Positions 5,799 through 42,000 of a DNA stretch of 64,000 nucleotides are shown one piece after another (within the stretch, counting starts at the first letter, position 1; every line of letters starts with the position of its first letter). The notes under the pieces were generated by a model. That model did not search any database. It was not told the DNA's origin and worked only from the letters and a program-made list of their open reading frames with translations. The stretch comes from an uncultured Bacilli bacterium. Its GTDB lineage: Bacteria > Bacillota_I > Bacilli_A > RF39 > UBA660. The stretch spans positions 9,861-73,860 of the forward strand of contig CAKPHH010000006.1 of NCBI GenBank assembly GCA_934157235.1, written 5' to 3'. Both the position numbers and the translations under genes were made by a program.

Positions 5799-5819
5799 TA
5801 ATGAAAGTTCTATTTTTTT
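5787..5819. terminator. bidirectional rho-independent terminator between convergent genes
   Basis: Perfect 10-bp inverted repeat GAACTTTCAT-aata-ATGAAAGTTC followed by a T-run. It overlaps the stop codons of both the 4728..5798 gene and the 5810..6022 gene. Confidence 0.6.
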
Positions 5820-6022
5820 GAATTGATTAAGCCTTGAAGAGCTTTATTAGCAGCTTCTTCTAGTTCTATAATACTATCAATATATTTAGCATAATTTTCT
5901 ACAACATCAACAAATTCAGCTAGTTGAGGAGCATCTTTTCCTTGAATTAAGTTTCTAATAATACCAGCACTTTCTCTTAACTCAGAGGCTATTTTATCAA
6001 TACCTATAGATTCATTAGTCAT
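5810..6022 (-). CDS. small helical hypothetical protein in the essC operon (possible T7SS substrate or accessory protein)
   Basis: 70-aa ORF overlapping the upstream ORF by 8 bp. Predicted helical hairpin, no signal peptide and no WXG motif. Confidence 0.4.
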   Translation of the reverse strand: MTNESIGIDKIASELRESAGIIRNLIQGKDAPQLAEFVDVVENYAKYIDSIIELEEAANKALQGLINSKK

Positions 6023-6221
6023 TGCCTAATTCCTCCATTCTTTGAGTAGTTACTTTTTTATTAGGATCAAAGAGATTAGCATTATTTATAACTATTTGTT
6101 TATATGTTTCTAAGTTGTCTAGATAATTAATATTATCTTGATCAGTCCAAACTTTTTTCATTGCTTCTAAGTAGCCATAAATTTTATTAACTGCTTGGAC
6201 ATATTGTTCATATTCAGACAT
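6015..6221 (-). CDS. small hypothetical protein in the essC operon
   Basis: 68-aa ORF lying 10 bp downstream of the YukD-like gene, in the same orientation. Confidence 0.4.
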   Translation of the reverse strand: MSEYEQYVQAVNKIYGYLEAMKKVWTDQDNINYLDNLETYKQIVINNANLFDPNKKVTTQRMEELGND

Positions 6222-6230
6222 AAGTACCTC

Positions 6231-6488
6231 CTATACAAGAATTATTCTTGATCCATTTTTTAGGTCTGTATCTTTAACTGTTTTATTAACATCATACACT
6301 TGACCTGTTTCTTTACTGTAAAAGTTTGTTTCAGGACTAATGATGTAATCATGTTCAGTTATTTCTAAAAGTCCTTCTTCGATTAGTCTTTTTATGGTGC
6401 CAATCTTTTTATTGATAGGAATGAACAAGTCATAAGACTTCTCTATTAGAGGAATATATAAACATATTAATATTTTATTTTTATTCAT
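6231..6488 (-). CDS. esaB: YukD/EsaB-like ubiquitin-fold T7SS protein
   Basis: 85-aa ORF immediately downstream of essC. Its size and position are typical of EsaB/YukD. Similarity is weak, so the call rests on context and size. Confidence 0.5.
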   Translation of the reverse strand: MNKNKILICLYIPLIEKSYDLFIPINKKIGTIKRLIEEGLLEITEHDYIISPETNFYSKETGQVYDVNKTVKDTDLKNGSRIILV

Positions 6489-6497
6489 AATTACCTC

Positions 6498-9400
6498 CTA
6501 CTCATCAGATAAGAATTTAACAACGTTGGCTTTACCTTTAGTGATAACATAACCAAAGTTTGGCTCTAACTCTGCTCTTAAAAGACGAGAATTTGTTGTT
6601 ACTTTAAATGTAAATTGATTACCAATACCATTACCTATCCAAATACCTTCTGATAAATCAATATTAGTTTTATACCAAGCTTCATAATTAAGAGACTTGA
6701 TATTATCAATTGTTTCTACAACAATAAACTTAATTGTACCTAATTTAGATGTTTCAGAGATAGCGGTTGTAAATGAAGCTTTCTTAGTAGAATCCAGTTT
6801 AGTTAATAAAGTATTTATGCCAGTTATAATAACAACAATAGGATCTTCACTATTATCCGTTTGTTTAGCAGTAATAGCATTTAAAACTTCTTCTATTCCA
6901 GTTTGACAATTTCCACTATCATAAATTGTATTTTGTGGTGGATTGTCAGATAAAATACTTAGAGCATCTAGAATTAGACATTTACTATTTTGAATTTTTA
7001 GAATCATTTTAGCTAAACCAGAAATAAATGGTTGAAGTGATGTAATATCCTCTCCTGTTATATTGTAAATAGTATTTTTTAGAGAAATTGTAGATATTTC
7101 TAGAGTTTCTTTTTCGATACCTACTGGTATTGATAAAATACCTCTTAGAGATTGGATAACATCATTTTCAGTTACTGTTTCTGGTAGAATTGGAATTTTC
7201 TTAGCCTTGTATTCACAAATTTGATTTAATTTATTACAAATTACCTTAACGTAGTCAACAATCTTTTCTTCTTTAAATGGATAAGCTGTTTGGAATTCGA
7301 AGATACCATCTAAATTTATTAGACCACGGCCAAAACCTTTTGATGGTTCTTTTTTACGAACTCCAGGTAAGACACTTGAATAGTCTGAAGGATCATTAAA
7401 TTGTAAAACAACGTTTTGGGCAAAGTTTTGACGAAGACGGTATCTAACAGTATTAGGTCCATTTGTACTTAGAATAAAGACAATACCATACTTTAGACAT
7501 TCTCTGGTTATTTGACCTAGGGCTTCTTCGTAATCTGGATACATTTCTAAGAAGCCTTCAATATTATTGATAACAACAACAATTAAAGGAATTTGTTTAC
7601 CACCATGATTAATATAGAAATCATAAGAACCATTATAGTCAACAAATACTTTCTTACGATCATCCATAATTTGATTAATCATCTTAAATAAATTAGCAAT
7701 CTTTTCATTTTCAGATGATAATAATACTTCTCCAACATGTGGAGCATTTCTAAACATTGTTAATGTTTCAGCACCAAAGTCTAGTAGATAGAAATTTACT
7801 TCACTAGAGTCATGAGTTGTTATAGTGGAATAAATGATTGTTTGTAACATTAACTCTTTTCCAGAACCAGCAGATCCAAAAATAATAGCGTTCCCGTTTG
7901 AAGACAATGGTAGGGTTAAAACGTTTTGTTTTTGGTTATCTGGATCATCATATTCACCAATAATTGGGTTAATATTATTGGTATTAATTTGATAAGAGTA
8001 TTTTTGTTTTAAATCTTCAACATATATATTATTTGGTATTCGATCTAGCCATAGTTGAGGAATGGAAACAGATTCTTGTTTAGCTTCTTCTACTATGTAT
8101 TTAATAATATTAGTGATTTCCTCACCTTTAGAGGCTACTTGAACTTCATTTTGTTTATTATCAAGACTTTTTATATTATTTCCAGTATCATCGATAAAGG
8201 TAATACTTTGATCGGTCTTTTTCTTTCTCTTTTCGGCCGGATAATACTGAGCTCCTGCCCAAGCGGCTTGTCCTTCTGCAAACAACTCGTTGTAGCCTAC
8301 TTGTAAGTAGAAACGCCCTGCATTTTTTAATGAAGCAGCATCTGGACATTTAATCATATCCATACTGTCTGATTTATCTTGAACTTTTAAACAGACACGG
8401 AATTTAGAGTTTGACCAAATTTGATCATTAACTACTCCGGCTGGTTTTTGGGTTGCTAGAATAAGATGGACACCTAAAGAACGACCGATACGAGCTGTAG
8501 AAATTAATTGTTCCATGAACTCTGGTCTTTGATCCTTTAATTCGGCAAACTCATCAGAGATAATAAATAGATGCGAAATTGGGTTATCTACTAGACCTTT
8601 ACGATAAAGGGCTTGATACTTATAAATATCAATAGTACTTTCATCCAATTTATCTCTGGCTTCATTAAACATTCTTTGACGTTTACGAAGTTCACTTTGA
8701 ATAGAAGCTAAGGAACGGTTCATTTCAACAGTATCTAGGTTGGTGATAGTTCCAGCTAGATGAGGTAATTTCATACCTGTCTCTTTATTTTGGAAAACTC
8801 CGGCTAGACCTCCACCTTTATAATCGATAAGAACGAAGGATACTTCGTATGGATGGTAGTTTAGAGCCATTGATAAAATATAAGTAATGATAAATTCAGA
8901 TTTACCAGAACCGGTCATACCAGCAATTAAACCATGTGGTCCATGAGCTTTTTCATGTAAATCTAGTTTGAATAATTCGCCGGACTTATCAACGCCAACT
9001 GCTGTTTGAAGACTTTTGGTAGGATCATTTGATTTCCATCTATTTAATATATTTAACTGTTCTACCATACCAACATTATACATTTCTAGGAAGGTTAAGC
9101 TTAATGGTAGCGTTTGGTTTGCTTTAGCAATATCGATTGGAATGTTGGCTAGTTGTTTGCAACATTCGTACATATTTAAGTTTAAGTCAAAGTCAGCATC
9201 AAATTCTTTTTGTTTATTTGAAACTAACTCATTTTCAAAAATACCAGACTTTTTATCACCAATACTAATAAATGTTTTACATTCATTTGGTAAATTTACT
9301 AATCTTGGACTGATGACAATTAAACTGAAACCAACGTTTACTTGCATATCAGAAACATCTTTTAATATTTCTAGATCACGAACTGTTTTATAATCATCCG

Positions 9401-11072
9401 TTATGATTACATAGTATGGCTTATATTTTTTATAATCAGCACTATTTAGTTCTCTAGTACCATTTACATCTTTATATTTTCTTGCTTGTAGTTCTTGTTC
9501 TAGGGCAAGAGATATTTCTTTGGCTTCATCTAGAGTATTGGCAAAATAACGGATACTGCGATCATTACTCCAACAGTGTGGACATATTTTTAAATATTCC
9601 CATTTACTAGAATTTTTTTCATTAGTCATTAGAACTATTTTCAAATCTTCATAACTATGATAAGCAATCATTTGAAGAATTAAGCCTTCAATGAATTGTT
9701 GTTTATTTTCAGCAGTACCGATAATTGCGGTAATATTTTTTTCCACAAAAGATGTGGAAATAGGAACATTTTCTAGTAATCTTGATTCAGCTCCTAGTTT
9801 ATAAACTTCTTGTAGAAGATTATCGGAATCAATAGAAAAGTGTTCTTGTGGGAAGTTTATACTACCGGCTAATTCAGTAGTACCAATTCCTAAACGTAGG
9901 TCAAGAAAGTCTGGTTGATCAATTTCTCTTTCCCATAAATTTCTTTTCTTACCAAAAATTATTTCTTTTGTTTCTTGAATTGGTAAGTAATTATCTACTA
10001 GTATTTGACGTTGAATTTTCATAGCGTTTTGAATTTCTGTTCTTTTAGAGTCAACATACTTTTTATACATAGCTTGACGAGTTTCTTCTTTTTTGCGGTT
10101 TTGCTTAGTTTGATATATTTTTGTTAAACTTGGCCATAAAATCATTGTAGATAACATTACTCCGGTTGTTATTAAGGATGGAGCAGCTGTTTTAAAATCC
10201 TTTGAACCATCGGCTAAGCCTTGTAAAGCGGTTATTCCGGTAGTTGCTGACATCATGGACATGGTAAGCATTGGACCAACAGTATATATTAGAGGTGTTT
10301 TATCTTCTTGTTGTTTACCAGGAGGTGTATCAATATTAACATTTATTGGTTCTATTTTAGTTTTAAATCTTGGAGCACGATAGAAGTAATCATCTTCTTT
10401 ATAAAATTCAATGTTTTCTTCATCAGGATTATCCATTTCTGTTTGATTTTGAATCCATGGATGATCTTCTTCAAGAACTCTTTGATCATAATTAACAATA
10501 TTACTGATTCGATTAAGGATTATAGAGTCTTTTAAAACTATTATTTTTAGACCCATGATAAAGATAATGTCTCCATACTCTAGTTGTTTAGAGGCAATAG
10601 CAACATTATTAGCATAAGTTCCATACTTACTATTTAAATCTTGAATTACCCAAATTCCTTTGTTGTATACTAATCTGGCTTGTTGTCTTGAGATTAAGGG
10701 ATAATTATAACAGATTGTTGAGGAAGGATCATTTCCAATAGTTATTTCGCAGTCTCCACGGACACGAAGACGATTTATATTAGGTTCGATTGAGGGAGAA
10801 CAATATAATATTACATATTCGTTATCGGTATTTATTTTTAAGAAGAAAAGGCTGTATTCACTTAAGATAGCTGATTCTATTTCATTTTCTCCTAACATTA
10901 TTTTTGTTTCAAAGTCACTCTTTATTTTCCAGTGACCGTCAAACTCTTCAACATTAATTAGATTTCTGGTATTTCCTAAGTAATCGTTATCCGTTATCCA
11001 ATAATTTCCGGCTATTTTAGTTGGTAGTGTGAAATTGTAAATTTTAGTTTTTTTGATAAGTCTAACTATCAC
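6498..11072 (-). CDS. essC: type VII secretion system ATPase EssC/YukB (FtsK/SpoIIIE family with N-terminal FHA domains)
   Basis: 1524-aa ORF with two FHA-like modules at the N-terminus, a TM segment (VGPMLTMSMMSATTGITAL), and multiple P-loop ATPase domains (GLIAGMTGSGKSE etc.). Confidence 0.85.
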   Translation of the reverse strand: MIVRLIKKTKIYNFTLPTKIAGNYWITDNDYLGNTRNLINVEEFDGHWKIKSDFETKIMLGENEIESAILSEYSLFFLKINTDNEYVILYCSPSIEPNINRLRVRGDCEITIGNDPSSTICYNYPLISRQQARLVYNKGIWVIQDLNSKYGTYANNVAIASKQLEYGDIIFIMGLKIIVLKDSIILNRISNIVNYDQRVLEEDHPWIQNQTEMDNPDEENIEFYKEDDYFYRAPRFKTKIEPINVNIDTPPGKQQEDKTPLIYTVGPMLTMSMMSATTGITALQGLADGSKDFKTAAPSLITTGVMLSTMILWPSLTKIYQTKQNRKKEETRQAMYKKYVDSKRTEIQNAMKIQRQILVDNYLPIQETKEIIFGKKRNLWEREIDQPDFLDLRLGIGTTELAGSINFPQEHFSIDSDNLLQEVYKLGAESRLLENVPISTSFVEKNITAIIGTAENKQQFIEGLILQMIAYHSYEDLKIVLMTNEKNSSKWEYLKICPHCWSNDRSIRYFANTLDEAKEISLALEQELQARKYKDVNGTRELNSADYKKYKPYYVIITDDYKTVRDLEILKDVSDMQVNVGFSLIVISPRLVNLPNECKTFISIGDKKSGIFENELVSNKQKEFDADFDLNLNMYECCKQLANIPIDIAKANQTLPLSLTFLEMYNVGMVEQLNILNRWKSNDPTKSLQTAVGVDKSGELFKLDLHEKAHGPHGLIAGMTGSGKSEFIITYILSMALNYHPYEVSFVLIDYKGGGLAGVFQNKETGMKLPHLAGTITNLDTVEMNRSLASIQSELRKRQRMFNEARDKLDESTIDIYKYQALYRKGLVDNPISHLFIISDEFAELKDQRPEFMEQLISTARIGRSLGVHLILATQKPAGVVNDQIWSNSKFRVCLKVQDKSDSMDMIKCPDAASLKNAGRFYLQVGYNELFAEGQAAWAGAQYYPAEKRKKKTDQSITFIDDTGNNIKSLDNKQNEVQVASKGEEITNIIKYIVEEAKQESVSIPQLWLDRIPNNIYVEDLKQKYSYQINTNNINPIIGEYDDPDNQKQNVLTLPLSSNGNAIIFGSAGSGKELMLQTIIYSTITTHDSSEVNFYLLDFGAETLTMFRNAPHVGEVLLSSENEKIANLFKMINQIMDDRKKVFVDYNGSYDFYINHGGKQIPLIVVVINNIEGFLEMYPDYEEALGQITRECLKYGIVFILSTNGPNTVRYRLRQNFAQNVVLQFNDPSDYSSVLPGVRKKEPSKGFGRGLINLDGIFEFQTAYPFKEEKIVDYVKVICNKLNQICEYKAKKIPILPETVTENDVIQSLRGILSIPVGIEKETLEISTISLKNTIYNITGEDITSLQPFISGLAKMILKIQNSKCLILDALSILSDNPPQNTIYDSGNCQTGIEEVLNAITAKQTDNSEDPIVVIITGINTLLTKLDSTKKASFTTAISETSKLGTIKFIVVETIDNIKSLNYEAWYKTNIDLSEGIWIGNGIGNQFTFKVTTNSRLLRAELEPNFGYVITKGKANVVKFLSDE

Positions 11073-13250: not shown

Positions 13251-13361
13251 TACTCCTATTATCTAGATTTTAACATAGATTAGTTGTTTTTTAAAGAGCT
13301 TGTTTTGTAATACTTGTCTTTACATTTTGACAAAGTAAAATGTTTCCTTTTAGAAATGTTT

Positions 13362-15422: not shown

Positions 15423-15521
15423 CTAGATTTTACCATGGATTGTATTTTTTTTAAAGAGCTAGTTTTGTAATACTTGTCTTTACATTTTGACAAAGTAAAA
15501 CGTTTCCTTTTAGAAACGTTT

Positions 15522-17597: not shown

Positions 17598-17730
17598 AAT
17601 ATGCTACTCCTCTTATTATGAGTTTATCATGATTTAAATTTTTTTGAAATAGCAATAGACAATTTTGTGATTAGTTAGATTACATTACATATAAAAACAC
17701 TTCTGCAATTAGAAGTGTTTGTTAGTTAGT

Positions 17731-19794: not shown

Positions 19795-19914
19795 AATACG
19801 CTACTCCTATTATCTAGATTTTAACATAGAATTTTATTTTTTTAAAGTGTTATTGTTGTGGAGGGTAACTTTTTGGTTTACAAAGAAAGAGACTTTCTAT
19901 AGTTAGAAGTCTCT

Positions 19915-25385: not shown

Positions 25386-27077
25386 TTAATTTTCCTTTGT
25401 CCAGTTGGCTTTATATATTAGGTCCCCTGTTGTTCCTATTGGAATTTTTACATCTAATTCTGGGGTAGTTCCATTACTTCCAGTCCAACCTATAAATACA
25501 TAACCATCTTTAGTTGGAGTCTTTAAAGTTACTTCTGAAATATTATAATATGAATTTATAATTGAACCTTGTCCTCCATCCAAATCTGTACTTATTTGAT
25601 ACTTTGTATGTCCTGTATATGGAATGGTTATATTGTAGCCTTCTGGATCTGTTTTTACTCCATCTACGATATAACAACTTAGTATTTGGACATCAGCGCT
25701 ATCTATTACTCCATCATTGTCTACATCGGCTAATTTCTTTTGAACATCAGTTAATTCAGTCATTCCATCTACGTATTGTATTATAAGTAGAGCATCTTTT
25801 GATTCTATTTTGCCATTTTGGTCAGCATCACCTAATAGTATCCAGTTTGCTTTATACGTTAGGTTTCCAGTTGTTTTTGATGATATTTTCACTTCTAATT
25901 CTGGAGTATCACCATTACTTCCTGTCCACCCTATAAATATATAGCCTTCTTTTTTTGGAGATTGTAGTGTTAATGTTGAAATATTATAATATGAATTTAT
26001 AGTTGTACCTTGTCCACCATCTAAATCCATACTTATTTTATATTTTGTATGGCCTGTATATGGTAGTGTTATATTGTAACCATCTGGATCTGTTTTTACT
26101 CCATCTACGATATAACAACTTAGTATTTGGACATCAGCGCTATCTATTACTCCATCATTGTCTACATCGGCTAATTTCTTTTGAACATCAGTTAATTCAG
26201 TCATTCCATCTACGTATTGTATTATAAGTAGAGCATCTTTTGATTCTATTTTGCCATTTTGGTCAGCATCACCTAATAGTATCCAGTTTGCTTTATACGT
26301 TAGGTCTCCAGTTGTTTTTGATGATATTTTCACTTCTAATTCTGGAGTATCACCATTACTTCCTGTCCAACCTATAAATACATAGCCTTCCTTTTTTGGA
26401 GATTGTAACGTTAATAACGAAATATTGTAATATGAATTTAAGATAGAGCCTTTTCCTCCATCTAGGTCCATACTTATTTGATACTTTGTATGTCCTGTAT
26501 ATGGAAAGGTTATATTGTATCCATTTGGATCTGTCTTTAAGCCATCTACGTAATAACAACTTAGTACTTGTGCATCGGCACTATCTATTACTCCATCATT
26601 ATCTACATCAGCTAGTTTCTTTTGTTCATCTGTTAACTCAACAGTTCCTTCAACATATTGCATTATAAGTAGAACGTCATTGGAATCTATCTTGCCATTT
26701 TGATCAACATCGCCGTATAGTATTGTTTCCTCATACTTTTTTGTGTCCTTATGAGTAATTTCTAATTCTGCTGGTAAAGTGACTTTATCACCAGTTAGAC
26801 CATTTATCCATATTCCTCTTGGAGTTTTATAGTAAATTATCATGTCTTCTAACTTATCACTTCCAATAGTTGTGGCACCTAGCATAATATGACTTGTTGT
26901 TAGAAGCATATCTTCAGTGAACATATGAGTTCCAATAACATAGGTGTTATTTGGTATGTCTGCAACTTGTGTTTTTTGTGCAAAGACATTAGTTGGATTT
27001 ATGATTATTGTTAAATAAAATATTGTAACTATTGTATAAAATAATTTCTTCATTCGTTTTTCCTCCTTAAACAACAT
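25386..27077 (-). CDS. secreted protein with three tandem dockerin-like Ca-binding repeats each followed by a Listeria-Bacteroides (Flg_new) repeat
   Basis: Signal peptide present. DQNGKIxSxDALLIIQYVDG...DVDNDGVIDSADVQILSCY dockerin type I-like pairs are each followed by EGYxFIGWTGSNG and KANW motifs. The unit is ~145 aa, repeated 3 times. Confidence 0.7.
   Translation of the reverse strand: MLFKEEKRMKKLFYTIVTIFYLTIIINPTNVFAQKTQVADIPNNTYVIGTHMFTEDMLLTTSHIMLGATTIGSDKLEDMIIYYKTPRGIWINGLTGDKVTLPAELEITHKDTKKYEETILYGDVDQNGKIDSNDVLLIMQYVEGTVELTDEQKKLADVDNDGVIDSADAQVLSCYYVDGLKTDPNGYNITFPYTGHTKYQISMDLDGGKGSILNSYYNISLLTLQSPKKEGYVFIGWTGSNGDTPELEVKISSKTTGDLTYKANWILLGDADQNGKIESKDALLIIQYVDGMTELTDVQKKLADVDNDGVIDSADVQILSCYIVDGVKTDPDGYNITLPYTGHTKYKISMDLDGGQGTTINSYYNISTLTLQSPKKEGYIFIGWTGSNGDTPELEVKISSKTTGNLTYKANWILLGDADQNGKIESKDALLIIQYVDGMTELTDVQKKLADVDNDGVIDSADVQILSCYIVDGVKTDPEGYNITIPYTGHTKYQISTDLDGGQGSIINSYYNISEVTLKTPTKDGYVFIGWTGSNGTTPELDVKIPIGTTGDLIYKANWTKEN
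25395..26715. repeat. ~441-bp intragenic tandem repeat x3 (copies 2 and 3 nearly identical)
   Basis: Antisense ORFs 25562..25786 and 26003..26227 are near-identical. The protein-level repeat is LGDADQNGKIESKD...KANWI. Confidence 0.7.
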
Positions 27078-28326
27078 AGGCGGTTACTTGTGTTCCATCT
27101 TGTAAAACCACAATAAATGTTGTTTCACCAGTAAGTGCATTTTTGTTTACGTTTGGATTGGTTCCTGAACATAAACGAGTTCCATCGCTATACCTTATTT
27201 CATTGACTGTTATTTGAGTTCCATTTTCATATACTGTTAATATTCTGGCTGGTGAATAGTCATCAACTATAGATATTTTTATTGTATATGATTTTTGATT
27301 CCATGTGGCAACAAGAGTTATGTTACCAGTTACAATTGAATTAAAATTATAGGCATTTCCATTTAGAGTCCAACCGGCAAAGGTATAACCTGTTCTTGTT
27401 GGGGCTGCTGGTTGTGTTACTTTATTTCCTTCTTCTACAATTTGATTTGCTACAGCAGTTCCACCATTGGAATTAAAAATTATCGTATATTTAGCCTTTT
27501 CTTTTTCGTTCCATTTTGCAACTAAAGTTATATTACTTTTGACTTGTGTATCAAAATTGTAGATATTTCCGTTTAGGGTCCACCCAACAAAAATATAACC
27601 ATTTCTAGTAGGATTTGCTGGTTTTGTGGCCTTACCATTTTCTTCAATTACTTGTTTTGAAACAGCACTACCACCATTTGAATTAAAAGTTACAGTATAT
27701 TTTTTTACTGATGGTTTATTATTGTTACTGCTTGAAGTATTGTTGTTATTGTTGTTACTTGATGAGTTTTGATTATTATTAGGTTGATTATTGTTATTCT
27801 GTTCTTTTTCAGGTTCCTTTTCCCATTTTGCCTTAAGTTCAATATTCTTATCAATTACTGTTTCAAAATCAAAAGTTTTACCATCTAATAACCAACCCTT
27901 AAATATATAACCTTCCTTAGTTGGATCTTTTGGTTTTGTAAGCTTGTTTCCTTTTTCAATAATTTGATTTGCTATTGTACTACCAGTATCAGTATCAAAT
28001 TTTACAACAAAAGTTTCAACATCTGCTTCAATTTTAGACCATTTGGCAGTTAAGACTAAATCTGAATTTACTTCTTTGCTAAAATCATAAGTTTTATTTT
28101 GATAAAGCCAGTCAACAAATAAGTAGCCATCCTTAATTGGGTCTTTAGGTTTAGTTGCTTGTTCTCCTTTATTGATTATTTGTGTCTCTATAGGTGTTCC
28201 TCCATCCGTTTCAAATGACACATTATAAGTTATTGTTTTTTTATTGCCTGTTAATAATAAGATAATACCTACTGCTATTATGACAGCAGATAAAATAAGA
28301 ATTATTAACAATTTCTTTTTATTCAT
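27067..28326 (-). CDS. membrane-anchored protein with four Listeria-Bacteroides (Flg_new) repeats and an N/S-rich linker
   Basis: GYLFVDW, GYIFKGW, GYIFVGWTLNG and GYTFAGWTLNG units each end in AKW/ATW. There is an N-terminal TM helix, and the 3' end overlaps the start of the downstream (dockerin-like) gene by 11 bp. Confidence 0.75.
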   Translation of the reverse strand: MNKKKLLIILILSAVIIAVGIILLLTGNKKTITYNVSFETDGGTPIETQIINKGEQATKPKDPIKDGYLFVDWLYQNKTYDFSKEVNSDLVLTAKWSKIEADVETFVVKFDTDTGSTIANQIIEKGNKLTKPKDPTKEGYIFKGWLLDGKTFDFETVIDKNIELKAKWEKEPEKEQNNNNQPNNNQNSSSNNNNNNTSSSNNNKPSVKKYTVTFNSNGGSAVSKQVIEENGKATKPANPTRNGYIFVGWTLNGNIYNFDTQVKSNITLVAKWNEKEKAKYTIIFNSNGGTAVANQIVEEGNKVTQPAAPTRTGYTFAGWTLNGNAYNFNSIVTGNITLVATWNQKSYTIKISIVDDYSPARILTVYENGTQITVNEIRYSDGTRLCSGTNPNVNKNALTGETTFIVVLQDGTQVTAYVV

Positions 28327-32248: not shown

Positions 32249-33061
32249 ATGGTGAGTATAATGTTTAATATTTTTTCAGAGCTTTCTCCAGTTTTTCAAG
32301 CAATGATTGCTGCTATATTTACTTGGAGTGTGACAATGCTTGGTGCGGCTATAGTTTTCTTTTTTAAAGAAGTTAAAAAAAGTATTATGGATGCGTTGTT
32401 GGGATTTTCGGCTGGTGTTATGATTTCGGCATCTTTTTGGTCTTTACTTAATCCTTCAATAGAGATGGCTGATAATTTGGGAATGAATTCTTGGCTAGTA
32501 GCATTTGTAGGTTTTTTAGCTGGTGGATTACTGCTATTTATCGGAGATAAAGTATTTAATTACTTTTCCCCTAAAAGCAATAATTCTAATAATGACAAAT
32601 TAAAAAGAAGTTTAATGTTGATATTTTCAATAACACTTCATAATATTCCAGAGGGTTTGGTTATAGGTGTGGCATTTGGTTCTTTAGCTTATGGAATTGA
32701 AGGAGCTACTTTAGCTTCGGCCATTACTTTGGCAATTGGAATTGGACTTCAAAACTTTCCTGAGGGAAGTGCAATTAGTTTACCTTTGCGAAGGGATGGT
32801 ATGAGTAGAAAAAAAGCTTTTTTTATAGGACAGTTAAGTGGTATAGTAGAACCTATTTCGGCTGTTATTGGAGCTTTCTTAGTACTTAAAATTCAAACTT
32901 TATTACCATTTTTATTAGCATTTGCTGCTGGAGCAATGATTTATGTGGTAGTTGAAGAGTTAATTCCAGAAAGTCAGTCTAATGCGAGAAAAGACTTAAT
33001 GGCCTTATTTACTTTAATTGGTTTTTCAATAATGATGATTTTAGATGTAGCATTAGGATAA
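32249..33061 (+). CDS. ZIP family metal (zinc) transporter, ZupT/GufA-like
   Basis: HNIPEGLVIGVAF and QNFPEGSAISLPL motifs with multiple TM helices. Confidence 0.85.
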   Translation: MVSIMFNIFSELSPVFQAMIAAIFTWSVTMLGAAIVFFFKEVKKSIMDALLGFSAGVMISASFWSLLNPSIEMADNLGMNSWLVAFVGFLAGGLLLFIGDKVFNYFSPKSNNSNNDKLKRSLMLIFSITLHNIPEGLVIGVAFGSLAYGIEGATLASAITLAIGIGLQNFPEGSAISLPLRRDGMSRKKAFFIGQLSGIVEPISAVIGAFLVLKIQTLLPFLLAFAAGAMIYVVVEELIPESQSNARKDLMALFTLIGFSIMMILDVALG

Positions 33062-33062
33062 A

Positions 33063-33097
33063 ATAAAGACCATTTCAATTGATGAAATGGTCTTTTA
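33063..33097. terminator. bidirectional terminator
   Basis: AAAGACCATTTCAattgaTGAAATGGTCTTT perfect inverted repeat between convergent genes. Confidence 0.6.
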
Positions 33098-33742
33098 TTA
33101 TTTGATGTATACCTTTTGTCCAGCCTTTAGATAAATTCCATATAAATCACTTTTTGGACAAGTAAATATAGGTGTTAATTCTTCTGTTGTTGGTTTAGTT
33201 GGTTCTTTGCTTGGAGTTGTTGGTACTTCTTCTGTAATTCGTTTGAAATTATAATTATAATCATTAATTATGTTTACTGATTTGTCTAGCCAGAGACATT
33301 CTTCGGGCTTTTTAGGATTGTTAATTGAGTAATAACCTTGATTATTTTTATGCCATCCAGTACCAGTGAATTTACCTTTTCCACATTCTATATGGCAATG
33401 ATTTCCTGTTGCGAAGCCTTTGGTTCCTTCACTATAGAATTCTTCATTCTGTGCTATTTTTTTGCCTACAAATAAATCACTTACATCATTGGCATGGGCA
33501 AACATCATAGTTAGATAATCTTTAGTACCATCGGGATATTCTACTTTATCTATACTTTCTAGCCATACTTCATTGGCATCATCTGTGTATATCTTTTTTA
33601 TTATTCCGGTAAATGGGGCTCTTAGTTTGCTTATTTCTGTATCTTTGCCAGCATCATCTATGGCATAACTATCTGCATGTGTTCCTTCGCCATATCCTTG
33701 TGTTATACGCATGTTGTAACAAGGATATAGAGGTCTTTCCAT
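33098..33742 (-). CDS. M23 family metallopeptidase (lysostaphin/LytM-like) without signal peptide, Pro/Thr linker and C-terminal small domain
   Basis: GTHADSYAIDD (HxxxD) and GNHCHIE (HxH) motifs. No N-terminal signal sequence. Linker PTTPSKEPTKPTTEELTP. Confidence 0.6.
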   Translation of the reverse strand: MERPLYPCYNMRITQGYGEGTHADSYAIDDAGKDTEISKLRAPFTGIIKKIYTDDANEVWLESIDKVEYPDGTKDYLTMMFAHANDVSDLFVGKKIAQNEEFYSEGTKGFATGNHCHIECGKGKFTGTGWHKNNQGYYSINNPKKPEECLWLDKSVNIINDYNYNFKRITEEVPTTPSKEPTKPTTEELTPIFTCPKSDLYGIYLKAGQKVYIK

Positions 33743-34083
33743 TAGATTCCCTCCTCCTTATTAATTAAATTATCTTTTGATATATATAAACCTTTTTGTT
33801 TGGTTATATCTGTATACGATGACACTTTCCCTTCTAAAGTTTTGTAGATAGTGTCAGCTCCAAGGAAGGAAAACATTCCGATCCATAGACTGTTTGGAAA
33901 ATCAATGTTAGTAAATGTCATACAAAAGACTATTCCAACAAATATATTAACAAATAGTGAATATATTGCTAGATATTTACTACTATGGAAACAACATTTA
34001 GTTTTTTGAACAAAGGCACAAGTTATTGTGCTTAAGGCTACTGCTATTACTAAAGATTCTCTTAAATATTCTAATTTTAGCAT
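33742..34083 (-). CDS. holin-like small membrane protein (3 predicted TM helices)
   Basis: ATG at 34081-34083 with GGAGG 7 nt upstream. 113 aa with 3 hydrophobic helices and a charged C-terminus. The stop overlaps the M23 gene start by 1 bp. The track ORF 33742..34200 over-extends into rpsI. Confidence 0.45.
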   Translation of the reverse strand: MLKLEYLRESLVIAVALSTITCAFVQKTKCCFHSSKYLAIYSLFVNIFVGIVFCMTFTNIDFPNSLWIGMFSFLGADTIYKTLEGKVSSYTDITKQKGLYISKDNLINKEEGI

Positions 34084-34174
34084 TCTTACCTCCTCTATGG
34101 TATTATATGCTAAAGAAGAATTTTTGTCACAAAAAGAAAACCTTGGATATTGTCCAAGGTTTGAAACTGTATAA

Positions 34175-34600
34175 TTAACGTTTTGAGAATTGTGGTGCAC
34201 GACGTGCTTTCTTTAATCCTGGTTTCTTACGTTCTTTCTTACGAGGATCTCTTGTAATGAATCCTGCAGCTTTTAGAACTTTTCTATAGCTGTTTTCAGA
34301 ATCAGCTGGAGTAGTTTTATCATAATCTAATAAAGCTCTTGTAATTCCTAAACGGATTGCTCCTGTTTGTCCTTGGAATCCTCCACCTTTTACTTTAGCA
34401 TCTACATCGAACATTTCTCTAGTGTTTGTAATATCTAATGGTTGACATAAATCCATTACTAATACTTCGAAAGGTAAGTAGTCATGTACATCTTGACCAT
34501 TGATTGTAATTTTTCCTTTTCCTGGAGTTAATGTAACACGAGCTACACTTGTCTTTCTATGTCCAGTTCCAGTATAAATATTTTTCTTTTCTTTTGCCAT
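34175..34600 (-). CDS. rpsI: 30S ribosomal protein S9
   Basis: 141-aa ORF ending ...RRAPQFSKR, the typical S9 C-terminus. Confidence 0.9.
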
Positions 34601-34616
34601 AAACCTAATCCCTTTC

Positions 34617-35048
34617 CTACTTAACTTCTAGCACTTCTGGTTTTTGTGCCATTTGTTTGTGCTCATTTCCTGCATAAACGAATAATTTCTTAGCCATTTC
34701 TCTACCTAATCTGTTATGTGGAAGCATTCCTTTTACAGCTCTTTCCATCATTTCAACTGGGTATTGTTCTCTCATGACTTTTGCAGTTCTTTCTCTTAAT
34801 CCACCAACATATTGTGAGTGATTATAATACATTTTGTTCTCTAACTTATTACCAGTTAAATTAACTTTTTCTGCATTAATAATAATTATGTTATCACCAC
34901 AATCAATATGTGGAGTATAAGTTGGTTTGTGTTTACCACGTAGATATGTAGCAGCTAATGAAGCAACTCTACCTAAAGATTTACCTTCAGCATCAATTAC
35001 ATACCATTTACGATTTACAGTTTCTTTTTTTTGCATATAACTTGTCAT
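34617..35048 (-). CDS. rplM: 50S ribosomal protein L13
   Basis: 143 aa, conserved L13 sequence ([17 protein letters not shown]...). Confidence 0.9.
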
Positions 35049-35334: not shown

Positions 35335-36042
35335 TTATTTTGCTGGCACTTTGGCCTCTTCTTTTTCAAAAAGTAAATCAATAAAGTCTGTTTTTACATC
35401 ACAATGTGCTTTGATTGCTTTTACATTATCATCGTTTAGATACCTTTCTGCTAAATATACCCTTTGTAGATTCTTCATACTTTGTAAAAATTCTAGATTT
35501 TCTCCTAAATCAGTTCCAAGCACAAATAAGGAACTACAATGAGCTTTATTTCCTAGGTAACTACAATTGTTTAGTATGCAATAGTTTAGGACTAATGTTT
35601 CTACACTTTCCGGGATGAGTTTACAATCGATTTCTCCCTCATCATATGGATTACTAAATTCTATTTTTTTCGCACTGTGATTTGAAGTAAGAATGCTGTC
35701 ATAGTCCTCTATTAGGCATCCTTGAAAACAAATTTCTGATATTGCGTTTTCTGGAATTGTAAGACCCTTTCCTATTAAACATCTTCTAAATGTTAGACTT
35801 TTACAATCTGTTCTAAATAGTTCATCAATATCTCTTTGGGATAATTCATAATTTTCAACAAAAATGTTGTTACCATCAGTTAAAGATTTTAAAACATCAA
35901 AATCACCATCGTGATCTTCTGAACAGCACTTAAAAGGATAGTTTTTTATTGTTTTTAACTCTTCATAACTAATATTTTCAATTTTCTTTCCCAATACATT
36001 TTCTAAATAATCCCTTAGCATACGATTTTTTATTTCTACCAT
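35335..36042 (-). CDS. putative immunity protein for the upstream LXG toxin (Cys-rich, LRR-like periodicity)
   Basis: 235-aa ORF 11 bp downstream of the toxin gene in the same orientation. No signal peptide. The call is from position only. Confidence 0.4.
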   Translation of the reverse strand: MVEIKNRMLRDYLENVLGKKIENISYEELKTIKNYPFKCCSEDHDGDFDVLKSLTDGNNIFVENYELSQRDIDELFRTDCKSLTFRRCLIGKGLTIPENAISEICFQGCLIEDYDSILTSNHSAKKIEFSNPYDEGEIDCKLIPESVETLVLNYCILNNCSYLGNKAHCSSLFVLGTDLGENLEFLQSMKNLQRVYLAERYLNDDNVKAIKAHCDVKTDFIDLLFEKEEAKVPAK

Positions 36043-36053
36043 ATTTTCTTCTC

Positions 36054-39000
36054 CTATAATTTTCTTAAGTAATCCATTATAAACTCTTTTGGCATACTAT
36101 CCATAATTGTTCTATAATCGTGATCTCTTGTAATTACTTGACTATTGCCACTTAGGTACGCTTTAAGTGTCGCTATTTTATTATATCTAGTACCATATTT
36201 TGAAGTCATGTAGTCTCCTATTGTATCTAACATTCTGTGACTTGATTGTATATCATTTTGGACAAGGTATGTTAAAATATCTTCTCTTGTCATTGAAGCT
36301 ATTTCCGTTCTACAACCATCAGTTCTTGTAATCTGGTTTATATCACCGGTTTCATAAAATCTTTTTATTCTCTTCAAACCTTCTCCCTGACCAAATTTAT
36401 AGTTCATAATAGATATTGCTTTATCTATCGTTTCTTTGCTCTTAATTACACTTGCATCTATTTCACTAGCATTAGGCAAATAATCTCTATATACTTCATC
36501 AGCATCTGCTACATGTTCCATTGCAAATTTTTTACTACGTCCAAAATAATCTGCACCTGGATTACCTGATTTCCATGTACAATCAACAGGTATTGCATTA
36601 CCGTTGTCATCAAATACTACATTCCATGCGTGTGTTTCTCCTCTGGATTTACCTCTAATGTAATCGCATGGTACATTACACATATCACATAAGTTCTTAT
36701 ATACTTGAGCGTAGCCAGCACATACAATACCAGGTTTACCTAGAATATTATTAGATGTAATTCCCTTTAGACTTGCAACTACCGAATGATGGCCTCCATA
36801 ATCATGGCAGTAACTAAATTCTTTAGCAACCATTTCATATATTTGCTTTGCTCTTTCAACCCTTGGTAATGACATATCAACTCTTGCTCTTAATTCCTCA
36901 AGTTTTGACATGATTGAAATAGCTTCACTTAAGTTAAAGTTAGTTCTTACTGCATAACGAGTCTTAGTGTATTTTGATTTGTATTGACCATCCATGCCTC
37001 TAAACGCACTATCAATAATAACATTACACTTTGAAGGATCTGCATTATCTCTAATATATCTTAATGCATCACTAGAAAATCTGGCATTATTTCCATTTAG
37101 CCTAACTGCTTCTCCAGCATTTATTTTAGCACAAACTTTGTTAGCTATTTCTAATTCTTGTTGTGTTAGTGAATATCTTCTCTCATAATTATAATCTGCT
37201 GCTATATCTTCTTTAAATGATTTTACTAATTTCTCATTTTCTTGACTTCCAACTTTTCTGTGAATCTCTCCATCTATATTATTTTCGTGTGGAAATACGT
37301 TTTCAGCTTTGATTCTTGCTTCTTCTTCAGCTTTTATTCTTGCCTCTTCTTCGGCTTTTACTCTTGCTTCTTCCTCGGCTTTTACTCTTGCCTCTTCTTC
37401 AGCTTTTACTCTTGCTTCTTCTTCGGCTTTTATTCTTGCTTCTTCCTCGGCTTTTACTCTAGCCTCTTCTTCAGCTTTTATTCTTGCTTCCTCTTCAGCT
37501 TTTACTCTTGCTTCTTCTTCAGCTTTTACTCTTGCTTCTTCCTCAGTCTTGATTCTTGCTTCTTCCTCGGCTTTTACTCTAGCCTCTTCTTCAGCTTTTA
37601 CTCTAGCCTCTTCTTCAGCTTTTACTCTAGCCTCTTCTTCAGCTTTTACTCTAGCCTCTTCTTCAGCTTTTACTCTTGCTTCTTCCTCGGCTTTTACTCT
37701 TGCCTCTTCTTCAGCTTTTACTCTTGCTTCTTCCTCGACTTTGACTCTGGCATCCTCTTCTGCATTGATTCTTGTTTTTTCAACACTTGCATTTTTTGTA
37801 TCTTCTTGAACTTTGAATCTTTCATTTTGGGCTGATAAATCTTTTACCTTTTCATTAGAAATGGATTTAATTTCTTCTGATGATACTCTCTTTGACTCTT
37901 CTATTTTTTGTGATTTTATTTCTTTTTCATACGCTGCGATTTGTTCTTTATTTTGGGCGATCATTTCATCGATTTGTCTTACTGCTTCATCATGGCCTCG
38001 TACGTTTTCTCTTTTTGCCCCATCTTCTTTGATTAATAATTCTTTCTCTTCTATGTTTGCTTTTCTGTCAGCCATTAAGCTTTCATTTTCTGCTTTTAAA
38101 GATTCTATTTGTTCTTTTTGTACTACTTTTAATTCTTCTACAGCTTTTTCGAATATTTCATCTGCTTGGGCTCTTGTTAGTTTTCCTTCTTCTACAGCTT
38201 TATCTAACTTTTTAGCCATATCGCCTATTGTATCATTTTCTGTTATTCCATAGTCTCTATAGTTTCCTGATGTTTCACTTGGAGTTTTCTCTATCATTTG
38301 AACTTTCTCGTCTGGTGCGGCTTTTACACTTCCATCTTCTTGCGCAGGTTTTGTGATTAGTTCTGGGGTTTGTTCAACTGGTTTTACTTCTCTTGGAGTA
38401 CTTTCTGGACTTGGTGTTGATACTTCTTTTTCATATGCTGCGATTTGTTCTTTATTTTGGGCGATCATTTCGTCGATTTGTCTTACTGCTTCATCATGGC
38501 CTCGTACGTTTTCTCTTTTTGCCCCATCTTCTTTGATTAGTAATTCTTTTTCTTCTATATTCGCTTTTCTATCTGCCATTAAGCTTTCATTTTCTGCTTT
38601 TAAAGATTCTATTTGTTCTTTTTGTACTACTTTTAATTCTTCTCCAGCTTTTTCGTACATTTCATCTGCTTGTGCTCTTGTTAGTTTTCCTTCTTCTACG
38701 GCTTTATCTAACTTTTTAGCCATATCTCCTATTGTATCGTTTTCTGTTATTCCATAATCTCTATAATTTCCAGATGGTTCACTTGGAGATGATTTTTCTA
38801 TTGTTGGAACTTTCTCATCTTGTACTGCCTTTACATTTACTTCTTCTTGTGTTGAATGATTTATGTTGTTGTTTTGTGAATCTATTTTTTGAGAAGTGGC
38901 TAAGTCATCTTGTACAATTTGGTCTTTTCGTAAATGATATTCGCTTTCTTTATAATTCAATACATCTTGATTACCAGTTAACATTTGATCTACTTCTTTT

Positions 39001-42000
39001 GTCATTGCGGCATTTTGTTTTGGATCATATTCTCCTATGTTTTTACGTGCTGCCGCTATTTCAGCATCTGTCATCTTTTTGTATGAGTTCCCTGTTAGAT
39101 TTTCTTCTGGTCTTACATAATGATATTCATTTTGTGAATTAACATCATAAGTTTTCTTTGCTAAATCATCTTGTACGACTTGATCTTTCCGTAAATGATA
39201 TTCGCCTTCTTTATAATTATGTACACCAATGTTTTCTATTATTGGATCTACTTGTTTTCCTTCTTCTGCTAATCTTTTTGGTTGATATCCAGCTTCATCT
39301 ACTGCTTTTGCACTTGAGTCTACTCGCTTACCTTCTTCTGCTAGTCTTCTTGGTTGATATCCACTTTCATCTACTGCTTTTGCACTTGGGTCTACTCGCT
39401 TACCTTCTTCTGCTAATCTTCTTGGCTGATATCCAGTTTCATCCACTGCTTTTGCACTTGGGTCTACTCTCTTACCTTCTTCTGCTAGTCTTCTTGGTTG
39501 ATATCCACTTTCATCTACTGCTTTTGCACTTGAGTCTACTCGCTTACCTTCTTCTGCTAGTCTTCTTGGTTGATATCCACTTTCATCTACTGCTTTTGCA
39601 CTTGGGTCTACTCGCTTACCTTCTTCTTGTGTAGGTTTTGTGATTACTTCTGGTGTTTGTTCAACTGGTTTTACTTCTCTTGGAGTAGTTTCTGAACTTG
39701 GTGTTGATACTTCTTTTTCATATGCTGCGATTTGTTCTTTATTTTGGGCGATCATTTCATCGATTTGTCTTACTGCTTCATCATGTCCTCGAACGTTTTC
39801 TCTTTTAGCTCCATCTTCTTTGATTAATAATTCTTTCTCTTCTATGTTTGCTTTTCTGTCGGCCATTAAGCTTTCATTTTCTGCTTTTAAAGATTCTATT
39901 TGTTCTTTTTGTACTACTTTTAATTCTTCTCCAGCTTTTTCGTACATTTCATCTGCTTGAGCTCTTGTTAGTTTTCCTTCTTCTACGGCTTTATCTAACT
40001 TTTTGGCCATATCGCCTATTGTATCATTTTCTGTTATTCCGTAATCTCTATAGTTTCCAGATGGCTCACTTGGAGTTTTCTCTATCATTTGAACTTTCTT
40101 GTCTGCTGCGGCTTTTGCGCTTACATCTTCTTGCGCTGGAGCATTTTTCTTGTAGTTTAAGTCGTTTGCGGTTTTGGTATTTATATCTGCCAATTTAGCA
40201 TCAACTGCTGGTGTTACTACTTTTGTATCTTCTACTAAATTGTTTAGTTTATAGTTTCCATAGTCTGCGGATACTTTTCCATTTTTATATAACTCAACAG
40301 TACTAATCACAGGAGTTGCGGCGGTAGTTGCAGTTACTACATTCGCCATTGCTGGATTTTGACCAGTTGTTGATATTTCAACATTATTTTTAACCGATTT
40401 AGAATTTCCTGTTATATTTGTTTCTGATTTCATATCAGATGATACACTTACTGTTTTTGTCTTATTTCCTATGCTATCTTGAACAATTTGATCTTTTTGC
40501 AAACGATATTCACTAGTATTATAATTTGGTGTATCTACTTTTTGTGGGTTTGTATTGGTATTTTTACCTGCCGTTGTTTGTGTCGCAGTTTTAGTTTCTG
40601 TTTGTGCAGGTTTTCCTGAATTATAGCTTGAATTACTTGCAGTTTTTGTATTAGTTTCTACCTTTTGTCCACTTGTTGCTGGTGTTGTAGTTTTTGTTTC
40701 TGTTTTTGTTGTTTTTTCTGGTTTGTAGCTTGAATCACTAGCTGTTTTTGTATTAGTCTCTATCTTTTGTCCACTTGCTGCTGGTGTTGTAGCTTTAGTT
40801 TCTGTTTGCGCAGGTTTTCCTGAATTATAACTTGGATCACTTGCTGCTTTTGTATTAGTCTCTATCTTTTGTCCACTTGCTGCTGGTGTTGCGGTTTTTG
40901 TTTCTGTTTTTGTTGTTTTTTCTGCTTTGTAATTTGGATCACTAGCTGTTTTTGTATTTGTTTCAATCTTTTTACCAGCAGCTGCTTGTGTGGCAAGTTT
41001 TGATGAACTCTCAACATCGGTTGATAATTTTTCTATTTCTACATCAGTTTTCGTTTTACTTTTACTTTCTATTTTGGCATCGGTTTCCTTACTTTTTAAC
41101 AGTTTTCTAGCATCCATTCTTTCTCCAGCACTGGACATTAATCCACCAAGCGATGCTTGTGTTAGAACATTTTTCCATCCACCTGACGTTTCGAAAGCTT
41201 TGTTATACTTTTCAGCAAAAGTTTCTCCTTCGTAGTCTTTATATATCATAGTTAAAGCTGGTTGAACGAATCCCTCTAGTCCAGAATCAACGGTATCTAG
41301 CCCTATACGAGTTAAAGACCCTTTGCCAGCACTTTTTAATACATTAGTGGCAATTTTATCTCCCCAGCCACCTATTTGTCCTATTTTAGCTCCGATTGCC
41401 CATTGAGCACTTTCCCAAGCACCATTTGCCAAACCATACACCAAACCTTCGCCAAGTGTTGCTCCGTCTGCCCAAGCTTCTTCTGAGCCACTGGAAATTG
41501 CCATTACACCTGCTGTCGCTGCTAATTGTCCTACTCCGACACTTCCAGCTGATAATATACCTGCTCCGGAAGCTAGTCCACCTGTAAAGACATTAAGTGC
41601 TATTATACCGGCACTATAACCAATGCCTTTTCCAATACTTCTTACCGTTTCAAAACCATAGGCATTATTTTTGATTGCTTGACCCAATTCTGTTTCATTA
41701 TAAAAACGATTGAAAGCACTTTCAACCTTTTTTTCTGAAACTCTAGCTTTAGTCTCCTCCCACATTTTTTCTGTTGTATTTTCACCGGTAATTACATCAT
41801 ATCCTAAAGTAAAAACAGAAAATATGGCAGTTGCTCCCATATCAAGCAAATCGGCTCCTGTTTCTAAAAATTCCCCAACACCTTCTACTACACCTAGTCC
41901 AGCAGCACCTACATCTGCTAAAATTCCAGATGCAAATAGTTTGGCTTTTCTGCCAAATGAAATGTAGTCATCAATAGCTGATAAATCAAGGTTTTTATAG

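Follow-up and report, generated by a model that had tools for sequence, protein, structure and literature searches.

A candidate domesticated holin-endopeptidase cassette beside ribosomal-protein genes in RF39-type gut Bacilli

A gene pair that resembles a phage lysis module lies beside the ribosomal-protein gene rpsI in an uncultured Bacilli bacterium, which raises the question of what such a pair might do in the chromosome of a gut bacterium. The pair is found in a stretch of 64,000 nucleotides (positions 9,861 to 73,860 of contig CAKPHH010000006.1, assembly GCA_934157235.1; GTDB lineage Bacillota_I, Bacilli_A, RF39, UBA660), hereafter called the window. It encodes a holin-like membrane protein of 113 amino acids and a putative endopeptidase of 214 amino acids that lacks a signal peptide. 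A preliminary description of the window had suggested a domesticated lysis or autolysis cassette, a bacteriocin-release system, or a holin-dependent exported wall hydrolase. The evidence given below leads us to lean, by a narrow measure, toward an anciently domesticated phage lysis cassette that provides a holin-dependent export route for the endopeptidase.

The gene pair and its products

In the hydropathy profile of the 113-amino-acid protein, two segments are strongly hydrophobic and a third is less so. An AlphaFold2 model based on 43 homologues (predicted local distance difference test score, pLDDT, of 69) contains helices at residues 4-29, 35-57 and 64-84, of which the third is weakly hydrophobic, followed by a disordered tail. 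The tail is of mixed charge, with 6 K/R and 5 D/E residues among the last 34. Thus, the three hydrophobic helices and charged tail of the preliminary description are borne out, and the predicted membrane topology does not fall below two helices.

Profile searches match the protein to the PHROG holin family phrog_1299 (E 1.5e-7). Its score against the Pfam family PF06946 (Phage_holin_5_1, Hol118) lies below the cut-off (E 0.023; 15.5 bits, cut-off 22.4), and 13 of its 43 relatives match PF06946 at E<=0.01. The gene has the usual attributes of a holin gene, because its product is shorter than 150 amino acids, carries transmembrane helices and a charged C terminus, and is encoded directly upstream of an endolysin gene; all class-I-like holin features are kept. 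Together, these matches suggest that the protein belongs with the phage holins, with borderline membership in the Pfam family. A tblastn search of 50,697 cultured-phage records for relatives of the holin gave no match.

The holin family is strongly conserved, with 69% mean column identity and essentially no insertions or deletions in an alignment of 43 sequences. Polar residues within and after the helices are invariant, as are the QKTK of loop 1 and the GAD..K.LEGK that follows helix 3, and the tail includes a conserved ISKDNIINKE motif. Because the positive-inside rule places the lysine-rich loop 1 inside the cell, we infer that the N terminus is outside and the C terminus inside, which would leave the tail in the cytoplasm.

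The 214-amino-acid protein is not a canonical M23 peptidase by sequence, and this label was rejected. The protein has no match to the Pfam family Peptidase_M23 (PF01551) even at E<=1 and none in a scan of NCBIfam, and the relationship is recovered only by structure and by a family profile. Its closest phage relative scores against PF01551 below the cut-off (E 0.0053; 17.4 bits, cut-off 28.7). The protein does match the PHROG endolysin family phrog_9066 (E 2e-13), and the family profile matches phi29 gp13 (3csq) among PDB sequences (E 2.9e-7). When the AlphaFold2 model (pLDDT 89.8) is compared with the PDB by using Foldseek, the top match is the C-terminal M23/LytM domain of the same phi29 protein (E 7.5e-12; root-mean-square deviation 1.8 Å over 171 columns). 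Lysostaphin, LytM, EnpA and DipM come next, at E-values of about 1e-5 to 1e-4. The matches among viral structures are phi29-like "morphogenesis" proteins and lysins of uncultured phages.

Of the M23 motifs reported in the preliminary description, the HxH is present (residues 115-117) and the fold is confirmed by structure, but HxxxD does not occur anywhere in the sequence. Instead, the predicted zinc motif comprises Hx6D (H22 to D29) and HxH, as in phi29 gp13, and the Hx6D aligns with the corresponding gp13 stretch. An alignment of 35 homologues shows no variation at H22, D29, H83, H115 and H117. The model and the alignments therefore indicate a gp13-type M23/LytM fold in which the predicted set of metal-binding and catalytic residues is intact.

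As had been described, the protein lacks a signal peptide. The highest Kyte-Doolittle mean over any 15 residues among the first 40 is -0.41, and no cryptic signal was found. The protein is predicted to be a zinc-dependent peptidoglycan endopeptidase that is made in the cytoplasm. Its catalytic domain is followed by a linker rich in Pro, Thr and Glu and by a C-terminal peptide of roughly 25 residues; the alignment shows that both the linker and the small C-terminal domain seen earlier are real. The linker ranges from about 18 to 75 residues between species and has pLDDT values below 50 at residues 175-185. The peptide, with the consensus LIFTCPKxDLYGIYLKxxQKLYLE, is modelled with high confidence as short beta-strands.

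The pair is a self-contained transcription unit, because it is flanked by the terminator of rpsI, by a promoter of its own and by a closing terminator (Table 1). The promoter-like site, which is located after the rpsI hairpin, is the best in the scanned region. Its -10 element lies inside a box conserved in the clade, "GCATATAAT", whose end is 16-18 nucleotides before the ATG in most loci. This box is kept across 89 loci, including those in which other genes are inserted after rpsI, and many related loci have a hairpin and T-run equivalent to the rpsI terminator upstream of the cassette promoter. The unit appears to be driven by its own housekeeping-type promoter. An operon with rpsI was considered and rejected, since a terminator and a separate promoter intervene and since the box persists at loci with other genes between rpsI and the pair. 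The terminator downstream of the pair separates it from a convergent gene for a ZIP-family transporter and serves both genes.

The start codon and strong GGAGG ribosome-binding site assigned to the holin gene in the preliminary description are confirmed, as is the 1-nucleotide overlap at position 33742, where the TAA of the first open reading frame (ORF) and the ATG of the second have one base in common. A GAGG-type motif resembling a ribosome-binding site precedes the holin gene in 84 of the 89 loci, and the 1-nucleotide overlap is present in 58 of them; like the promoter box, both are retained where unrelated genes have entered after rpsI. This arrangement suggests that the two genes are translationally coupled, in the window and in all 80 species-representative genomes considered below. 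An Rfam scan for riboswitches or leader RNAs at E<=1 returned only two chance-level matches, far under the gathering scores. Codon adaptation values (0.60 for the holin, 0.62 for the lysin) are ordinary for the window and uninformative as a proxy for expression.

Table 1. Coordinates of features in the window
Feature	Position	Strand	Remark
rplM	35048..34617	minus	
rpsI	34600..34175	minus	
Intrinsic terminator of rpsI	34138..34162	minus	10-bp stem and T-run
Promoter-like site, sigma-70-type	34102..34130	minus	GTGACA-17-TATAAT; 11/12 matches
Shine-Dalgarno sequence	34089..34095	minus	GAGGAGG, 5 nucleotides 5' of ATG
Holin-like membrane protein gene	33742..34083	minus	113 amino acids; ATG at 34083
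M23-type endopeptidase gene	33742..33098	minus	214 amino acids
Endopeptidase, catalytic domain	33233..33742	minus	residues 1-170; alignment, model, Foldseek
Endopeptidase, hypervariable Pro/Thr/Glu-rich linker	33179..33232	minus	residues 171-188; alignment, dN/dS, pLDDT
Endopeptidase, conserved C-terminal peptide	33101..33178	minus	about 25 amino acids
Bidirectional intrinsic terminator	33065..33095	both	13-bp perfect stem
ZIP-family transporter gene	32249..33061	plus	convergent to the pair
HtrA-type serine protease gene	1509-2615		
Abi_2 (abortive-infection-like) gene	2605-3558	minus	overlaps start of HtrA-type gene by 11 nucleotides
EssC-like gene with three small ORFs	5810-11072	minus	ORFs of 85, 68 and 70 amino acids
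EssC-like gene alone	6498..11072		1524 amino acids
Five tandem paralogous genes	11193-21954	minus	about 680-690 amino acids each
Paralogue scanned for domains	11193-13250		
Dockerin-containing protein gene and neighbour	25386-28326	minus	
235-amino-acid ORF	35335-36042	minus	follows the 2084-amino-acid gene
2084-amino-acid repeat-rich protein gene	36054-42308	minus	

Inheritance of the pair and its phage relatives

A scan of species-representative genomes yielded 160 stretches with an encoded relative, of which the 80 best were retained as loci. These derive from metagenome-assembled genomes (MAGs) of RF39-type gut bacteria, including "Mycoplasma sp. CAG:877", uncultured Bacilli, Tenericutes and Mollicutes, Candidatus Onthousia and Faecimonas. 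Every homologue found comes from gut metagenome proteins or MAGs; the enzyme has more than 1000 and the holin 224. The holin gene is directly upstream of the lysin gene in each of the 80 species loci. The preliminary description had raised the question of whether relatives keep the pair. They do: the two genes lie side by side at all 88 related loci, which is far more than a chance pairing.

The pair is generally preceded by rplM and rpsI and followed by the convergent ZIP gene (66 of the 80 loci), with an EssC-like ATPase often next. The gene for this ATPase, which carries FHA and FtsK/SpoIIIE domains, is present in the downstream flank at 45 loci and directly follows the lysin gene at 7. Metagenome contigs whose holins are 80% and 63% identical have the same gene order. 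The placement of the pair immediately downstream of rpsI, as first described, is right in position but not in the sense of an operon: rpsI lies within 300 nucleotides upstream at 31 loci, and at 35 it is further away, with 0.35-5.8 kb of inserted genes between.

Both junctions of the cassette, with rpsI and with the ZIP gene, are insertion hot spots in relatives (L002, positions 7056-8410; L036, L044 and L064 between rpsI and the holin gene). Judged by eye from the translations, the inserts include an insertion sequence element with an rve/HTH_21 transposase, an apparent ABC transporter with a regulator, and other cargo. The pair itself is never split by insertions in these relatives.

Both genes are intact in 89 of 89 copies and show ratios of nonsynonymous to synonymous divergence (dN/dS) of 0.22 for the holin and 0.24 for the whole lysin, compared with 0.26 for the ZIP gene and 0.16 for rpsI. 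Within the lysin, the ratio is 0.18 in the catalytic part, 0.40 in the C-terminal peptide and about 1.6 in the linker, where no constraint is detectable. The nonsynonymous divergence of holin and lysin correlates with that of rplM and rpsI (rho 0.47-0.66). The G+C content of the pair equals that of its flanks, and its codon usage is like that of neighbouring genes. Searches near the pair found neither flanking att-like direct repeats nor tRNA genes. As stated in the preliminary description, no phage gene or integrase is found around the pair, whose neighbours are rpsI, the ZIP gene, an aminotransferase gene and a gene for an ATP-grasp protein. These observations indicate that the pair is a chromosomal unit inherited vertically under purifying selection in at least 80 species, and the domesticated cassette proposed earlier is in agreement with them.

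It might be supposed that two genes so clearly of phage type are merely an inert prophage remnant that came to lie beside rpsI by chance. We regard this as hardly credible. With every copy intact and dN/dS about 0.2, with a single chromosomal setting across 80 species and conserved expression signals, and with no phage neighbours, att repeats or compositional signature to mark an island, a remnant is effectively ruled out.

The phage ancestry of the pair is reflected in three metagenomic viral contigs from IMG/VR. In one of these (L091), a holin 43% identical over 87 amino acids is encoded directly after tail genes, and its gene overlaps that of a canonical M23 endolysin. The other two encode endolysins after tail-fibre genes and a holin; their catalytic domains are 63% (L096) and 56% (L097) identical to that of the window, and both end in the same C-terminal peptide. 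Endolysins of the L096/L097 type are about 325-335 amino acids long and have an additional middle region of roughly 80 amino acids and a coiled-coil-like segment, which the chromosomal enzyme lacks, having the low-complexity linker in their place. An SH3 label for the middle region was dropped, since Pfam does not support it and the only matches are coiled-coil-like and lie further on.

Relatives of the catalytic domain in cultured phages are distant: 38% identical in a faecal microvirus, 35% in a Clostridium innocuum phage endolysin and 31% in Enterococcus tail lysins. Among 1.84 billion cluster representatives searched, 1184 clusters carry the catalytic domain, in many architectures. The matches indicate that both chromosomal genes derive from phage lysis genes, and the pair is therefore a trimmed form of the lysis cassette typical of phages of this host group. 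The holin-endolysin architecture recognized in the preliminary description is upheld by the two PHROG matches and by the L091 and L096 cassettes.

The microvirus mentioned above (L090; MG641182.1, positions 2310-3005) has a 5.5-kb Microviridae genome from moose faeces, and the relative is annotated as a "hypothetical protein". This microvirus is predicted to encode a peptidoglycan endopeptidase of its own, and its host is possibly Gram-positive or RF39-like.

Many phage endolysins of the family carry the peptide at their C terminus, as a rule behind a coiled coil, and it turned up in several phage-type lysins of the cluster search; its approximate pattern is phi-F-T-x-x-K-x-D/G-x-Y-x-phi-x-L-x-x-x-x-x-L-Y-phi. 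Representatives are the endolysins of L096 (8001-9002), L097 (8001-8975) and L091 (8350-9333) and the proteins P0244, P0249, P0253, P0341, P0342, P0362, P0367 and P0372. In sister lysins, a short amphipathic helix takes the place of the peptide (for example, ...LLSAIWAKLFKIK). The peptide looks like an undescribed, interchangeable C-terminal module of endolysins. Docking of the holin tail onto this peptide is left as speculation, because the two do not strictly co-occur in phage cassettes. In L096 and L097, holins of a different family end in an "IP.EN"-like tail beside peptide-bearing lysins, and the same-family holins of L092-L095, whose tails are similar, stand next to unrelated endolysins without the peptide.

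Possible functions

RF39 bacteria, the order in which Candidatus Faecimonas (GTDB genus CAG-877, family CAG-611) is placed (PMC8035907), are predicted to have a thin peptidoglycan wall (PMC10868615). Most penicillin-binding proteins and most lytX/cwlX endopeptidases are predicted to have disappeared already in the ancestor shared by RFN20, RF39 and ML615J-28 (PMC10868615). The window encodes an Amidase_3 of the Sec type, with a signal peptide, and a SpoIID-like protein, so the bacterium has a wall and exports wall enzymes in the ordinary manner. Among the wall enzymes, the exception is the predicted M23 enzyme, which has no signal.

We consider it slightly better than an even chance that the pair is an anciently domesticated phage lysis cassette that serves RF39-type gut Bacilli as a holin-dependent export route for a peptidoglycan endopeptidase. 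In such a scheme, the holin-like protein would be the sole route by which the folded enzyme passes the membrane. Once outside, the enzyme would cut peptide cross-links in the thin peptidoglycan of the cell itself. The all-or-none lysis of a phage would be attenuated into a controlled opening of the wall that is local or limited to a subpopulation, and the result would be a Gram-positive counterpart of export by holin and peptidoglycan hydrolase ("type 10"). Non-lytic export of this kind has been documented (PMC9527704, PMC10109510). A tamed, non-catastrophic mode is favored because a housekeeping-type promoter appears to drive the unit in every species and the extra domains of the phage relatives have been lost. 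Attenuation is suggested by the loss of the middle region and coiled coil and by the unusual constraint on the holin. The purpose is most likely wall remodelling or separation of daughter cells, given the predicted loss of most Lyt/Cwl endopeptidases in the ancestor of this lineage. As the main alternative purpose, the wall may be opened so that the neighbouring EssC-like system can export large proteins.

Several points weigh against the export proposal. A true holin under a promoter that looks constitutive should be lethal, so either the holin does not form lethal holes or it is subject to regulation that is not seen. No cargo gene consistently adjoins the pair, unlike in the type 10 systems described. 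Moreover, the lineage has no cultured member and hence no phenotypes. A stronger form of the proposal, which we think possible but unlikely, is that, after loss of the usual Lyt/Cwl autolysins in the RF39 ancestor, the main peptidoglycan endopeptidase came to leave the cell routinely and without killing it through the holin, and that the cassette serves a housekeeping function in growth throughout an order-level lineage. The C-terminal peptide and Pro/Thr stalk might then tether the enzyme to the membrane or holin while it reaches into the thin wall, and normal growth and division would need a holin-based pathway independent of Sec and Tat.

The pair might also be a true lytic one that fires in a subpopulation or under stress, such that bursting cells release large toxins, DNA or nutrients to the benefit of kin, as in the lytic, type 10 release of Tc toxin in Yersinia. 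Release by lysis has precedent (PMC10847048), the architecture of phage cassettes is retained down to translational coupling, and the holin has kept its class-I-like features. Moreover, a 2084-amino-acid repeat protein without a signal and with a transglutaminase-like core is encoded about 2 kb upstream in the window. However, this protein is not a conserved neighbour, and relatives have other genes in its place. The apparently housekeeping-type promoter, the absence of an adjacent regulator gene in any locus and the loss of the extra phage-relative domains, which suggests attenuation, also speak against programmed autolysis, to which we give a minor but real share of the probability. It is distinctly unlikely that the pair is a wall-opening accessory of the EssC-like (type VII-like) system, that is, an analogue of EssH delivered by a holin rather than by Sec. 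Assembly of the type VIIb secretion system across the wall of S. aureus does require a dedicated hydrolase (PMC13059805), and the EssC-like gene is found in the downstream flanks counted above and in the window itself. Yet 22 kb separate it from the pair in the window, the convergent ZIP gene and terminator usually intervene, and essC has a conserved promoter of its own even where it directly follows the lysin gene. In 15 species, a full 7-kb downstream flank contains no EssC-like gene; the association is one of position, and the synteny may only mirror general collinearity of genomes in the clade. Since neither the small ORFs after essC nor the N terminus of the 2084-amino-acid protein matches WXG100, YukD or LXG families in Pfam, the type VII identity rests on one gene.

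A role in conflict is very improbable, whether the enzyme is a bacteriolysin directed at related competitors or the holin interferes with the lysis timing of infecting phages. The M23 bacteriolysins lysostaphin and zoocin A are among the fold matches, and in phages of the host clade, the holins belong to the same family and the endolysins carry the C-terminal peptide as well. Nevertheless, the enzyme has no signal peptide or wall-targeting domain, and no FemABX-type immunity gene lies beside the pair. A fixed locus, steady purifying selection and divergence that tracks ribosomal proteins are also unlike the fast turnover of weapon and defence loci. PADLOC defence models do not match the pair, and its assignment as a defence system was rejected for this reason. 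Lack of a signal peptide, targeting domain and immunity gene likewise makes bacteriocin release the least favored of the three functions offered in the preliminary description.

Other window features, related systems and implications

Several further features of the window are listed in Table 1. Five tandem paralogous genes are present, and the one that was scanned encodes a prepilin-type methylation motif (N_methyl) at the N terminus and BspA-type leucine-rich repeats after it. Pilin-like adhesins with leucine-rich repeats would be unusual in a Gram-positive bacterium with a reduced genome. Another gene encodes a protein with three dockerin type I domains and Listeria-Bacteroides repeats, and its neighbour also encodes Listeria-Bacteroides repeats. 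The dockerins suggest cellulosome-like or other cohesin-dockerin surface assemblies in an RF39 genome. An abortive-infection-like gene overlaps the start of a gene for a serine protease of the HtrA type.

The transglutaminase-like core of the 2084-amino-acid protein is C-terminal (Pfam E 1.3e-4), and neither a signal peptide nor an LXG domain was detected in this protein. Its gene and a following ORF of 235 amino acids without a family match are wedged between a block of ribosomal-protein, ECF and truA genes and rplM, a position that is not conserved in relatives. The two may be a toxin-immunity pair. The three small ORFs after the EssC-like gene have no Pfam match. A promoter and leader of essC ("GTTATAATTACATATAGAATAGGAATAATAACTGGGGTGATCT") are common to 6 of the 7 loci in which essC directly follows the lysin gene (L034, L040, L044, L047, L048 and L064) and diverge in the remaining one (L057).

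The known systems closest in kind to the RF39 pair are the type 10 systems (Serratia ChiW/ChiX, the TtsA and ChiA systems of Salmonella, and Tc release in Yersinia) and TcdE/TcdL of C. difficile. As in these, a phage-derived holin and a signal-less hydrolase are encoded in the chromosome outside any prophage, have been retained by the host and are not accompanied by lysis-associated phage genes. In contrast, type 10 systems occur in a few pathogens only and adjoin their cargo (a chitinase or toxin) and a regulator, whereas neither adjoins the RF39 pair as a conserved gene in the 80 species. The RF39 pair is instead a clade-wide, syntenic set in at least 80 commensal species, with a predicted hydrolase that is a gp13-type M23 endopeptidase bearing a distinctive C-terminal peptide. 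In C. difficile, the endolysin partner TcdL is a remnant, whereas the RF39 enzyme is intact.

Other comparisons concern the individual parts. The cassettes of phages that infect RF39-type hosts share with the pair the holin family (43% identity), the catalytic domain (56-63%), the C-terminal peptide and the overlapping gene order, but they follow tail-fibre genes and encode longer endolysins (about 325-335 amino acids). The C-terminal domain of phi29 gp13 likewise has Hx6D and HxH, as opposed to the HxxxD of LytM and lysostaphin. However, gp13 is part of the virion tail knob, has an N-terminal lysozyme domain and functions in entry, and the sequence identity is only 22%. Hol118 of Listeria phage A118 is also a small, three-helix holin with a charged C terminus, but no internal second start (dual-start motif) is evident in the RF39 holin, whose conservation is far above that usual for holins. 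The wall hydrolase gene of S. aureus EssH is likewise located beside an EssC-type locus. EssH is a Sec-exported CHAP enzyme, whereas the RF39 enzyme is a holin-partnered, signal-less M23 protein encoded in its own transcription unit. Unlike class III bacteriocins (lysostaphin and zoocin A), the RF39 enzyme lacks a secretion signal, a C-terminal wall-targeting domain and a linked immunity gene.

Re-use of holin-hydrolase pairs by bacteria is known from a handful of pathogens, always with a particular toxin or enzyme as cargo. The RF39 pair stands apart in its stable vertical inheritance, its housekeeping-type promoter and its lack of linked cargo, and it is present in at least 80, and probably more than 160, species of abundant, uncultured gut bacteria of humans and animals that have reduced genomes. 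The C-terminal peptide of 25 amino acids, which is common to the endolysins of phages infecting these hosts, is worth characterizing, including for the design of enzybiotics. If the pair does export an endopeptidase, phage lysis genes would be convertible into core envelope machinery, and RF39 bacteria would offer a natural, long-tested case of non-lethal holin transport for mechanistic study. Such export could also explain how thin-walled organisms turn over their walls after the loss of canonical autolysins.

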